DNA of 49,904 bases from an uncultured Bacilli bacterium. GTDB lineage: Bacteria > Bacillota_I > Bacilli_A > RF39 > UBA660. Where the stretch lies: the NCBI GenBank assembly GCA_947627915.1, contig CANQXT010000003.1:1-49904 (forward strand), written 5' to 3'. The notes under the pieces were generated by a model. It worked only from the letters and a program-made list of their open reading frames with translations, was not told the origin of the DNA and made no database searches. Each line of letters opens with the position of its first letter. Position 1 is the stretch's first letter. Position numbers and translations under genes: made by a program. Of this stretch, positions 43,188-46,607 are shown in pieces.

Positions 43188-43631
43188 ATGAAAAAGATAA
43201 TTATAGGAGTGCTAGTAATAATAGAAATATTTTCTTTGTATATGATGTATCAAATAAATAATAGTAAAAGTTTAAATGAAGTAAGTATAAAAAATAATAA
43301 AATAAATAAAGATGTCTTTGCCGTATATTGGGATGAAAATGGAGATGGAACGTATACAGAATATACACAAACAACATGGCCTAGTTCTGGTTATACATTA
43401 AATTTAATAAAAACAGAATGTATGAATGAAAAAGGAGATAAACTAGAAAATCCAGAAATAACTTTCAATCATGGAACAATAACATTAAGTAATACTGAAA
43501 CAACATATTGTATATTGTATTTTGAAAAATTAAAAGCAAGTATATTACTATACGATAATCAAATAAAAAATAGAACAAGTTGTACAGATATTCAATGTGC
43601 AATAGATGAACTATATAAAGCAAGTTATTAA
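43188..43631 (+). CDS. Small membrane-anchored surface protein, first gene of the CLec operon
   Basis: N-terminal hydrophobic segment; FAVY...C...YCILYFEK domain similar to the N-terminal domain of 1193-3763; C-terminal IQCAIDELY motif. Confidence 0.8.
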   Translation: MKKIIIGVLVIIEIFSLYMMYQINNSKSLNEVSIKNNKINKDVFAVYWDENGDGTYTEYTQTTWPSSGYTLNLIKTECMNEKGDKLENPEITFNHGTITLSNTETTYCILYFEKLKASILLYDNQIKNRTSCTDIQCAIDELYKASY

Positions 43632-43644
43632 AAGGAAGATAGAT

Positions 43645-45114
43645 ATGAAGAAGATAATAAAAGATAACTATCCAATATTGATTGGAATATTAATAGGAAT
43701 AATATCAATAAGTGGAGTATATGCAGCAAGTACAATGATAGAAAGTGATGAAGTAACATATGATAATACAACAAGTCATGGAGATTATACAAATGTACAA
43801 GAATCAATAGATGAATTATATGAGATAAATAAAATACATAAAGATGAATGGCAAGATCCAACATTACAAGCAAGTGGTAATTACCCATTATTAACCGGAG
43901 ATTTAATCCCAGTTGAAATAAAACCAAATGGAGATGTATATTATGCCAATAAACATAGTGAATGGTATAACTATAGTGAAAAGAGATGGGCTAATGCCGT
44001 AATATTAAAAGCAGAGAAAAAAGAAACATATTCAGAAGGGCAAAAGATAAAAGAAGAAGATATAAATGGATATTTTGTCTGGATACCAAGATATAAATAT
44101 CAAGTATGGCATTATAATAGTGATAGTGATGCAATAGATGGAAATACATTAAAAAATGAAAATTATAGTAATTCAACAACGCAAGCATTAGGTAAAGCAA
44201 GATTAATAAATATCGAGTTTGAAAGTAAAAGTACTTCAAAAAGTGAAGCAACTGATAATACCAAAAATGGAGACTGGTTAACCCATCCAGCATTTACATT
44301 AGGAAGTAAAGAATTAAGTGGCATATGGGTAGGAAAGTTTGAAACAGGAAAAGAATCAGATAATGTAATAGTAAAGCCTAATGTAACATCATTTACGAAT
44401 AAAACAGTAAAAGAATTCTTTGAAGCTGGAAAAAAATATAATCAAACATTAGATAGTCATATGATGAAGAATACAGAATGGGGAGCAGTAGCATACTTAT
44501 CACATTCTGAATATGGAATAGGAACAGAAGTAAGAATAAATAATTATGAAGGATATAAAACTGGATATAGTGCAGCAGCAAATACTGATCAAAGTAGTTA
44601 TAATTATAATAGTAATAAAGGAGAATATGGAACTATAGATGATATAACCCAACAATATAATACTCCAACAGGATACTTAGCAAGTACAACTGGAAATATA
44701 ACAGGTGTATATGATATGTCCGGAGGAGCATGGGAATATATGGCAGCTTGTATGGAAAATACACCAAAAGATAGTGGTTTTTCTACAGAAGACTTAGAAA
44801 AAGAAATGAATGCTGGTTATATAGATAAATATCCAAGTGATACTAACTCATATAGTAACAGAATCTTAGGAGATGCAACAGGAGAGATGGGACCATTCTA
44901 TAATTATTATGATAAAGATAATGGTAAACGTTATCATAATGTTTGGTACGCTGACTATTCGGGCTTCGTTGCCTCTTCTTACCCGTGGTTCGGTCGAGGA
45001 GGCGGTTACGACAATGGCGTCTTGGCCGGCCAGTTCGACTTCGGTGGGTACAACGGTGGTGCGAATGGCCGCATTGGGTTTCGCCTCGTCCTTTCACCTG
45101 AAAATAATTCATAA
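43645..45114 (+). CDS. Surface CLec/FGE-sulfatase-fold protein, putative DGR target
   Basis: Start moved to the ATG at 43645, after AAGGAAG. Signal/TM ending GVYA, then VWIPRY, HPAF, WVGKFE, EWGAVAYL, GVYDMSGGAWEY and PWFGRGG...GFRLVL. Confidence 0.88.
   Translation: MKKIIKDNYPILIGILIGIISISGVYAASTMIESDEVTYDNTTSHGDYTNVQESIDELYEINKIHKDEWQDPTLQASGNYPLLTGDLIPVEIKPNGDVYYANKHSEWYNYSEKRWANAVILKAEKKETYSEGQKIKEEDINGYFVWIPRYKYQVWHYNSDSDAIDGNTLKNENYSNSTTQALGKARLINIEFESKSTSKSEATDNTKNGDWLTHPAFTLGSKELSGIWVGKFETGKESDNVIVKPNVTSFTNKTVKEFFEAGKKYNQTLDSHMMKNTEWGAVAYLSHSEYGIGTEVRINNYEGYKTGYSAAANTDQSSYNYNSNKGEYGTIDDITQQYNTPTGYLASTTGNITGVYDMSGGAWEYMAACMENTPKDSGFSTEDLEKEMNAGYIDKYPSDTNSYSNRILGDATGEMGPFYNYYDKDNGKRYHNVWYADYSGFVASSYPWFGRGGGYDNGVLAGQFDFGGYNGGANGRIGFRLVLSPENNS
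44941..45100 (+). other. Putative DGR variable region (VR), with the IMH expected at its 3' end
   Basis: Hand count: 94/160 G+C and 19/160 A, inside an otherwise strongly A-rich gene. Variable codons mostly end in C/T, as expected for codons derived from AAY. Confidence 0.8.
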
Positions 45115-45149
45115 GTTACTTAAATACTAATAGAAAGAAGAATATATAA

Positions 45150-46607
45150 ATGAAGGAAAAAACAAAGAATAAAATAAAACTATTAATAGGAATAATAATA
45201 GGATTAATATTATCAGTAAGTGGAGTATATGCCACAAGTTCAATGATAGAAAGTGAAGAAGTAACTTATGATAATAAAAACAGTGATGGAAAATATAATA
45301 ATGTCCAATCATCAATAGATGAATTATATGAAAGAAGTGGAATACATAAGGAAGAATGGACTGATAAAGAATTAAACGGAAATGATCCAGTAATAACAGG
45401 AGATTTAATCCCAGTTGAAATAAAACCAAATGGAGATGTGTATTATGCAAATAAACATAGTGAATGGTATAACTATAGTGAAAAAAGATGGGCTAATGCT
45501 GTAATATTAAATGAAGGAAAAAAAGAGACATATTCTGTAGGACAAAAAATAAATGAAAATGATATAAATGGATATTTTGTCTGGATACCAAGATATAAAT
45601 ATCAAATATGGCACGCAACAAGCGAAGATGGAACACCAGATGGAAATACATTAATAAATACAAATTATGGTAATTCAACAACACAAGCATTAGGTCAAGC
45701 CAGATTAATAAATATTGAGTTTGAAAGTAAGGATACACCAAAAAGTGAAGCAAAAGCTGAAACTAAAGATGGAGATTGGATAACCCATCCAGCATTTACG
45801 TTAGGAACAAAAGAATTAAGTGGAATATGGGTAGGAAAGTTTGAAACAGGTGGAGATGCAACTAATGTAATAGTAAAACCAAATGAAATATCATGGCGAG
45901 GTGCAAATGTAAAAGCATTCTTTGATGCTGGAAAAAAATATAATCAAACATTAGATAGTCATATGATGAAGAATACGGAATGGGGAGCAGTAGCATACTT
46001 ATCCCATTCTGAATATGGAATAGGAACAGAAGTAAGAATAAATAATAATGAAGAATTTAAAACCGGATATAGTGCCGCAGCTAATACAGATCAAAGTAGT
46101 TATAAAGGAGATACAGGTAAGAGTGATGAAAAAGATAAAACACAACCATATAATACGCCAACCGGATACTTAGCAAGTACAACTGGAAATATATCAGGGG
46201 TGTTTGATATGTCCGGTGGCGCGTATGAATATATGGCAGCTTGTATAGAAAATACTCCAGGAGATAGTAGTTTTTCTACAGAAGACTTAGCAAAAGAAAT
46301 GGATAAAGGCTATATAGATAAATATCCAAGTGATAGTGATACAACAACATATAGTAAAAGAATATTAGGAGATGCCACTGGAGAAATGGGCCCATTCTAT
46401 AGTTATTATGAAAAAGATGGTTCGTTGCATAATCATAGTGCATGGTACGCTGATGATGCATATTTTGCTAACTCTTCTTTTCCATGGTTTTATCGAGGAG
46501 GCTTTAATGGTAATGGAATCTTGGCAAGTCAATTTACTTTTCATAGATACAATGGTATTGCTTACAATTCGCTTACTTTTCGTCTTGTTCTTTCTCCAAC
46601 TAATTAA
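45150..46607 (+). CDS. Second CLec/FGE-fold surface protein (tandem paralogue) with a degenerate VR-like end
   Basis: Long near-identical blocks shared with 43645-45114; GVFDMSGGAYEY and PWFYRGG...TFRLVLSP. Confidence 0.88.
   Translation: MKEKTKNKIKLLIGIIIGLILSVSGVYATSSMIESEEVTYDNKNSDGKYNNVQSSIDELYERSGIHKEEWTDKELNGNDPVITGDLIPVEIKPNGDVYYANKHSEWYNYSEKRWANAVILNEGKKETYSVGQKINENDINGYFVWIPRYKYQIWHATSEDGTPDGNTLINTNYGNSTTQALGQARLINIEFESKDTPKSEAKAETKDGDWITHPAFTLGTKELSGIWVGKFETGGDATNVIVKPNEISWRGANVKAFFDAGKKYNQTLDSHMMKNTEWGAVAYLSHSEYGIGTEVRINNNEEFKTGYSAAANTDQSSYKGDTGKSDEKDKTQPYNTPTGYLASTTGNISGVFDMSGGAYEYMAACIENTPGDSSFSTEDLAKEMDKGYIDKYPSDSDTTTYSKRILGDATGEMGPFYSYYEKDGSLHNHSAWYADDAYFANSSFPWFYRGGFNGNGILASQFTFHRYNGIAYNSLTFRLVLSPTN

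Follow-up and report, generated by a model that had tools for sequence, protein, structure and literature searches.

Why does a gene made of AT-rich DNA end in a block that is GC-rich and poor in adenine? The question is raised by the gene at 43645-45114 in a 49,904-nt stretch of DNA (the window) from an uncultured Bacilli bacterium, whose draft genome (G000) comprises 1,287,956 bases in 90 contigs at 24.5% GC and is 92% complete. Our answer, to which we assign a probability of about 0.93, is that a diversity-generating retroelement (DGR) of the chromosome has written positions 44947-45094, its variable region (VR), in trans, using a template repeat (TR) on another contig, C18. On this reading the window gene is one of at least eight targets of a single TR family (coordinates in Table 1).

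The block is conspicuous from composition alone. Direct counting gives 58.8% GC and 11.9% A for 44941-45100, matching the hand counts of about 59% and 12% in an earlier model-made note on this DNA (the sequence-only reading), with 29.6% GC and 45.2% A in the gene body (43645-44940) and 24.4% GC across the window. In a 148-nt sliding scan of the 49.9-kb stretch for A-poor, GC-rich DNA (mean GC 0.244, standard deviation 0.061) the island is the single GC maximum (0.60) and the single A minimum (0.12), and no other segment reaches a GC content of 0.50 or more. The block can be delimited to the 148 nt of 44947-45094, within the 44941-45114 proposed earlier, and the alternation of fixed and variable codons described there is real: the codons listed as invariant are the same in the TR, save one GGC for which the TR has GGT. 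Two further open frames of 85-89 codons overlap the VR, at 44843-45112 on the minus strand and 44873-45130 on the plus strand; they are not genes, and exist because the GC-rich block has no stop codons.

The template was found by comparing window positions 44900-45114 with their own genome (matches at E ≤ 2.5e-7), which returned 16 further places. In fifteen of them the match is at the 3' end of a paralogous gene of some 485 codons; the remaining one, the TR, is non-coding. The minus strand of C18 carries, in order, a small gene, a target gene with its own (cognate) VR, a 12-bp hairpin, the TR, about 270 nt of non-coding DNA, and open reading frames (ORFs) of 125, 119 and 351 amino acids. Scanned against Pfam at E ≤ 0.01, the 125-residue product, encoded between the TR and avd, matches MutS_I (E 1.9e-10). 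The 119-residue product matches bAvd (E 1e-15, 58.6 bits, above the cut-off of 40) and also NCBIfam DivGenRetAVD, at E 1.2e-19 and 70.5 bits, under the equivalog cut-off of 80. The 351-residue product, encoded about 1 kb from the TR, matches the reverse transcriptase (RT) family RVT_1 (E 7.6e-17) and carries IGNYTSQ and YMDD, [I/V/L]GxxxSQ being described as the signature motif of DGR RTs (PMC7826257). Among its phage relatives (36-43% identity; 162 matching records) are Vibrio phage VP585, ANMV-1 and crAss-like phages, and five of the records are of Bordetella phages. The best solved relative, matched over its full length, is the 328-residue RT of 8ub7 (E 3.7e-45), presumably the Bordetella phage bRT. 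Judged by motif and relatives, the C18 RT belongs to the DGR class. The Avd protein has no significant match among PDB sequences, and HRDC is not matched in the three cassette proteins at the same Pfam threshold.

RVT_1 has three matches in the whole genome (C18, C82 and C51), none on the window's contig, and the only additional TR-like DNA in the window is an eroded stretch at 46446-46593. The sequence-only reading was therefore right that neither an RT nor a TR lies within these 50 kb, and the TR beside a DGR-class RT that it predicted elsewhere in the genome is the one on C18. Its term 'orphan' does not hold at the level of the genome, as C18 carries a complete DGR cassette.

Table 1. Features of the window and of related loci in the same genome. 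Positions without a contig prefix are those of the window; mismatches are to the TR.
Feature	Position	Strand	Description
DGR target gene	43645..45114	+	489 amino acids from ATG 43645; an in-frame ATG upstream at 43606 would give 502
Variable region (VR)	44947..45094	+	148 nt, 49 codons in the gene's frame; gap-free TR alignment; 58.8% GC
VR 3' end, candidate IMH-like homing boundary	45073..45094	+	TR-identical, GC-rich; TR and VR diverge right after 45094
Spacer, VR to next paralog	45095..45149	+	no hairpin
Tandem paralog	45150..46607	+	485 amino acids; VR-homologous stretch 46446-46593 eroded
Small upstream gene	43188..43631	+	147 amino acids, N-terminal hydrophobic segment
Template repeat (TR)	C18:18630-18483	-	148 nt, non-coding, between paralogous target gene and MutS_I/bAvd/RT genes
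Cognate VR	C18:18978-18831	-	3' end of paralogous target gene; mismatches 11 at A sites, 1 non-A
C63 VR			mismatches 13 at A sites, 1 non-A
C2 VR	C2:49299		mismatches 11 at A sites, 1 non-A, plus a 3-nt deletion
C40 VR			mismatches 17 at A sites, 0 non-A
C8 VR			mismatches 11 at A sites, 2 non-A
C30 VR			mismatches 20 at A sites, 3 non-A
C47 VR			mismatches 17 at A sites, 5 non-A

The window VR and the TR align over 148 nt without gaps and in frame, with 23 mismatches, which fall at 17 of the 34 TR adenines and at 6 of the 114 other bases (Fisher p = 1.2e-8). The adenine-site mismatches are at codon position 1 (11) or 2 (6) and never at position 3, and 11 of the TR's 49 codons are AAY. The expectation that mismatches would fall almost only at template adenines is thus mostly borne out, by 17 of the 23; of the six exceptions, five are synonymous third-position changes and the sixth is an ACC-to-AAC change. 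The TR shares its final 3' stretch unchanged with the window VR and with all but one of the seven other GC-rich VRs, the exception being C30 with one change, and the flanks differ beyond it.

The same bias recurs across the family. Its 16 paralogs, several of them cut at contig ends, divide into eight with adenine-biased VRs and eight with eroded copies, and the bias is found in all eight GC-rich VRs (p from 1e-6 to 3e-13). Variable columns among these eight are 29 of the 34 A positions and 14 of the 114 others. Paralogs share 76-86% identity over the 600 nt that precede the VRs, whereas the non-A sites of the eight VRs are 94.7-100% identical to the TR, indicating that the block has been homogenised toward the TR after the paralogs diverged. 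To be homogenised at non-A sites yet differ at adenines is the signature of a DGR, for which conversion from paralog to paralog is inadequate. It could otherwise be proposed that a GC-rich C-terminal cassette was spread through the 16 paralogs by ordinary conversion or recombination between genes, with no part for reverse transcription, as befits a large repeated family with many copies at contig ends; the first variable codons (TAT, GGC) are indeed common to the window VR and its closest gene-body paralogs, C40 and C47. Such conversion cannot explain why the differences track the A positions of a non-coding repeat or why that repeat adjoins Avd and a DGR-type RT, and in eight of eight comparisons it is the C18 copy that has the adenines and the VR that has the substitutions, so that we regard it as very unlikely. 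As to the shared codons themselves (TAT ... GGC, window 44956-44964), the three VRs differ at later A sites, and the sharing fits overwrites of the 3' part of the VR only, or selection for those residues.

A 90-contig draft with 16 near-repeats also raises the concern that the block was stitched in by the assembler from the reads of another paralog or strain. Against this, a 214-nt contig from public run X1 matches 44973-45186 without a difference, linking the VR with the unique spacer and the beginning of the following gene, a 137-nt contig of the same run matches 44814-44950 exactly, and a 122-nt contig from run X2 spans 44866-44987 with three differences. The public-run comparison comprises only short assembled contigs of four runs, and the exact X1 pieces leave 44951-44972 unbridged; X1 is, moreover, possibly the source sample and so not fully independent. 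We nevertheless consider an artefact of this kind scarcely credible.

The protein is of the kind that DGRs diversify. Its layout comprises an N-terminal basic and hydrophobic segment followed by a TaqVP-like C-type lectin/FGE-type fold. The order at the N-terminus (basic stretch, hydrophobic stretch, VYA/AS) reads as a signal peptide or anchor, pointing to a probable surface location. An AlphaFold2 model, with an input alignment of 60 homologs, has a mean predicted local distance difference test score (pLDDT) of 85.1 and a predicted template modelling score of 0.85, residues 1-38 being unstructured with pLDDT below 50. Foldseek gives seven matches at E ≤ 0.001, each of them to a DGR variable protein: three to TaqVP chains, with 5vf4 at the top (E 2.3e-11), and four to Mtd variants. 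In VIA-align, TaqVP aligns with model residues 88-485 over 253 residues (Z 21.5, root mean square deviation 3.3), followed by PvdO (Z 12.6), TvpA (2y3c, 12.3), Mtd (10.9) and FGE (about 10.5). The C-type lectin fold expected by the sequence-only reading is thus what the model gives, and the protein is predicted to have this C-type lectin/FGE fold with the VR in its C-terminal part; the Pfam FGE-sulfatase match is weak (E 5e-4, 20.2 bits, under the cut-off of 23.3). The protein family numbers at least 7,999 members at E ≤ 1e-5, and among the matches listed the best outside the genome's own paralogs (72-76% identical) has 59% identity. In the consensus of the 60 homologs the variable C-terminal columns coincide with the A-containing codons of the TR, as would fit DGR-driven variation across the whole family.

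By analogy with known DGRs, the TR would be transcribed, and the RT, with bAvd and perhaps the MutS-like protein, would make a cDNA in which adenines are misread and other bases copied faithfully. This cDNA would replace the homologous 148 nt at the target gene's 3' end, anchored at the shared GC-rich 3' boundary, within which 45073-45094 is a candidate for the function of initiation of mutagenic homing (IMH). A secreted or surface-anchored TaqVP-like protein would in this way have some 17 codons for its ligand-binding face re-randomised while the scaffold codons stay fixed, and the GC-rich, A-poor island in a 24% GC genome would be the footprint of copying, A-poor because adenine is avoided at the scaffold positions of the TR and half of the TR's adenines are replaced in the window VR.

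Several observations weigh against this account, and some bear on a further explanation, which shares its origin for the VR and differs only on present activity. The C18 and window contigs are unlinked, the VR-TR distance being at least about 7 kb if contig ends abut, and this leaves long-distance action in trans undemonstrated. The six mismatches off adenine are the most among the eight TR-matched VRs, and the sole assembled TR leaves unexplained three non-A states that the window and C47 VRs have in common. No hairpin follows the window VR (45076-45150 folds at -1.8 kcal/mol, z +0.98), while the cognate C18 VR is followed by a 12-bp stem with a 4-nt loop (-7.7 kcal/mol, z -2.2). A 123-nt contig of run X5, from a second study, equals 45007-45129 exactly, so that the 3' two thirds of the VR are the same in an independent sample. 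Finally, the listed variant places are no denser in the VR (at least 5 in 148 nt) than in its flanks (at least 33 in 1053 nt).

The mismatch count, the missing hairpin and the identical X5 contig are also what speaks for the explanation just mentioned, in which the DGR did once write the VR, but the gene has since ceased to receive new copies and its sequence is passed on by inheritance alone. That targets do drop out and erode, to 34-51% GC, is evident from the eight other paralogs, among them the tandem neighbour and a pair on C38. Other features of the window VR fit such retirement poorly. Its 5' and 3' homology blocks to the TR are intact, and its GC content is still 59%, at the top of the set together with C47. 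Three of its six non-A differences are AT-to-GC changes and another is G-to-C, a spectrum not expected of erosion in DNA of 24% GC; a variant TR fits better. The hairpin, tried as a predictor of TR likeness across the eight VRs, shows no consistent relation to it, C47 combining a hairpin with five non-A mismatches. All five variant places listed within the VR in the four runs (44956, 44957, 44972, 45004 and 45005) are at TR-adenine positions and at codon position 1 or 2, a pattern that cross-mapping could mimic since paralogous VRs can cross-map at 90% likeness. In runs X2 and X6 the bins over 44997-45078 have no cover or almost none, where the flanks are covered to 99-100%; we do not take this as hypervariability. 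Exact-pattern scans of JGI metagenome contigs gave no match to either the VR/spacer junction or a degenerate VR core. On balance, retirement of the gene as a target is a serious possibility that we hold at somewhat under an even chance, and we put the odds that the window VR is still active at present at about even.

The trans-writing account has still to accommodate the six non-A differences, which suggest either that the last overwrite was earlier than in the other seven VRs or that it came from a variant TR copy. The 'recently rewritten' of the sequence-only reading is accordingly true in one sense only: at non-A sites the window VR is 94.7% identical to the TR while its gene body is 78.6% identical to the cognate target, so that the VR is recent relative to paralog divergence, but it is the least TR-like of the eight. 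It shares its non-A states at TR positions 72, 81 and 84 with the C47 VR while adjacent A sites differ, which points to a variant TR as their source; the state at position 117 is shared with the cognate VR and that at position 120 with C30. A linear history of TR states was considered and rejected, as the pattern of sharing with C47, C18 and C30 is incompatible with a single series of 3'-anchored overwrites.

In a congener (G011, C3:12000-18600; L020), four tandem TR-like units of about 465 nt (L020 2412-4379) precede genes in the order MutS-like (MSL), avd and RT. The target gene's VR there is at L020 2163-2312; three of the units have 34-36 A's, with VR mismatches mostly at A, and the fourth is partly VR-like. 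Multi-TR cassettes therefore appear to occur in the genus, and a similar TR repeat could have collapsed in the present short-read assembly; several tandem TRs would be an uncommon arrangement for a DGR. Of 24 genus genomes searched, 5 contain TR-like DNA, as do none of 16 from outside the genus. Relatives of the RT at E ≤ 1e-30 occur in 6 of 41 other genomes, two being intact (69-71% identity) and two carrying in-frame stops (G047, 61% identity; G007, 43%). This patchy occurrence, together with the stops, indicates that the cassette is patchy in the genus and sometimes decaying.

The two other RT loci of the genome are of different kinds. C82:1-3291 holds a second, unrelated DGR, with a VR fragment (1-89) cut by the contig end, MutS_I (270-728) and bAvd (700-1053) genes, and an AAC-rich TR (1072-1160) 80% identical to its VR; on the opposite strand are an RT with IGAMTSQ (1340-2056) and an ORF (2297-2722) resembling MutS-like genes. 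Its TR was rejected as the source of the window VR, as it has no copy in the genome except its own truncated VR. The 319-residue RT of C51 (L009:1345-2304, plus strand) has its best match in the retron St85 family (E 2e-62, 211 bits, under the cut-off of 235), and is probably a retron-type defence RT unrelated to DGRs. The exact 19-nt VR 3' boundary has eight matches among species-representative genomes, all in unrelated high-GC taxa (Acidobacteriota, Planctomycetota, Omnitrophota, Mycobacterium and others); these probably encode the same GFRLVL motif of FGE-type domains, and some may be DGR targets themselves.

The paralogs with eroded VRs are graded in their divergence. Six copies align to the TR without gaps (two on C38, and those on C22, C16, C2:17464 and the tandem neighbour 45150-46607), with 13-35 non-A mismatches and a GC content that declines from 51% to 34%. 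Their identity to the TR at non-A sites is 69-89%, which does not exceed that of the gene bodies, and C71 and C36 hold still weaker matches. The tandem neighbour, with 50 mismatches to the TR of which 15 are at A sites, lies at the low end of both ranges (69% non-A identity, 34% GC), so that a TR-like VR and a fully eroded one sit 1.5 kb apart and the neighbour can be used as an internal control. Paralogous to the window's tandem pair is a pair on C38 whose first gene has an already half-eroded VR (13 non-A mismatches), implying that the window copy was overwritten, or kept overwritten, after that duplication. Taken together, these observations could mean that a single TR family maintains at least eight dispersed VRs and that the 16-member family records the full life cycle of DGR targets. 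Live VRs may be held GC-rich and TR-like by repeated retrohoming, while copies that lose homing may erode toward 24% GC, so that elapsed time could be gauged from GC content and non-adenine identity; some VRs may keep earlier or alternative TR states, as the window and C47 VRs share three, and the lineage may have multi-TR cassettes, possibly collapsed in assembly. This joint reading is tentative, and as a whole we think it rather improbable.

The locus is cellular and not prophage-borne, as it is surrounded by housekeeping genes: UvrA upstream, and Lgt and a thioredoxin-reductase-like oxidoreductase downstream. The small gene just upstream of the target (43188-43631) has no Pfam or NCBIfam match. 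Homologues of it also lie upstream of paralogs on C38, C63, C8, C18, C16 and C2, and its repeat family is larger than that of the targets, with BLAST matches 79-97% identical on at least 12 other contigs. Its product ends in ...C.DIQCAIDELY, resembling the NVQESIDELY helix that follows the target's hydrophobic segment, and the shared IDELY motif may mark a common assembly or anchoring module. The conserved position of the small gene beside paralogs of the target suggests that it may belong to the DGR system. Ten of the genome's 19 segments at 52% GC or more were inspected as candidates for further VRs and rejected, being four tRNA clusters, three collagen-like Gly-X-Y repeats and three other Gly- or Gly-Pro-rich segments. 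C2:29489-29807, C78:1899-2248 and C48:7688-8119 are GC-rich tandem repeats with collagen-like Gly-X-Y on the opposite strand, and the main GC islands of this genome are such collagen-like repeats, the VRs and tRNA clusters.

The window VR indicates that a composition anomaly alone, a GC-rich, A-poor tail on an AT-rich gene, can flag a remote DGR target, a class that a large metagenome survey of DGRs describes its own approach as unable to detect (PMC8144416). One TR, eight adenine-biased VRs and eight eroded paralogs occupy about 23 kb, or 1.8% of the genome, implying heavy investment in variable surface lectin-like proteins by an organism of the rabbit and animal gut. The locus is of value mainly for its targets, graded from live to fossil, and for its hint that the TR may have variants or more than one copy. 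With TR-like and eroded copies side by side, these targets form a natural series for asking what keeps a remote target, and if the life-cycle reading is true, the cis features deciding target status (hairpin, tandem position, serving TR copy) could be read from it.

The cassette itself is of a recognised kind. Its gene order, target-TR-MSL-avd-RT, and its small MutS-domain-I protein with avd and RT place it, by sequence, in the MSL plus Avd type, the 'Architecture D' of Wu et al. 2018 that includes the Legionella DGR. In the account of PMC5758913, MSL genes occur in 16 of 372 DGRs, always with avd and none with HRDC, and encode proteins of 112-283 amino acids, a range that includes the 125 residues found here. 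With the Bordetella phage BPP-1 system (Mtd, Avd, bRT) it shares adenine-specific TR/VR differences, an AAY-rich TR, Avd, an RT with [I/V/L]GxxxSQ, a GC-rich 3' boundary and a hairpin after the cognate VR, and Mtd resembles the modelled target (Z 10.9); BPP-1, however, is phage-borne, with a single adjacent target and no MutS-like gene, whereas the present system is cellular with many targets. The closest solved structure, TaqVP of Thermus aquaticus (Z 21.5, the next at 12.6), is likewise a DGR variable protein with a C-terminal VR in a C-type lectin fold, but it has 19% sequence identity and comes from a different phylum and cassette, and the window protein has some 85 extra N-terminal residues.

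In its use of targets the system resembles two others. Treponema denticola also has one cellular DGR acting on several dispersed, paralogous surface proteins of C-type lectin fold; its cassette is of HRDC architecture (PMC5758913), and its targets, like those of Legionella, are outer-membrane lipoproteins according to PMC10907252, whereas the targets here have an N-terminal hydrophobic segment. Against the survey maxima reported in 2018, seven non-adjacent targets in Treponema denticola and eight tandem ones in a Stenotrophomonas (PMC5758913), the target count here, one cognate and seven non-adjacent VRs within 1.29 Mb beside eight eroded paralogs, is equal or higher. In Thiohalocapsa PB-PSB1, as here, VRs at loci without their own RT or TR match a TR elsewhere at non-adenine sites, and activity is described as varying between targets (PMC10907252). 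The large genome of that organism holds nine DGR loci with 15 targets, which are linked to NTPase conflict systems (PMC10907252), whereas here one TR family serves eight VRs of one surface-protein family. The DGR to which we trace the end of the window gene belongs to a known class of system, and is proposed to act in trans on dispersed targets, here with an unusually large target family.

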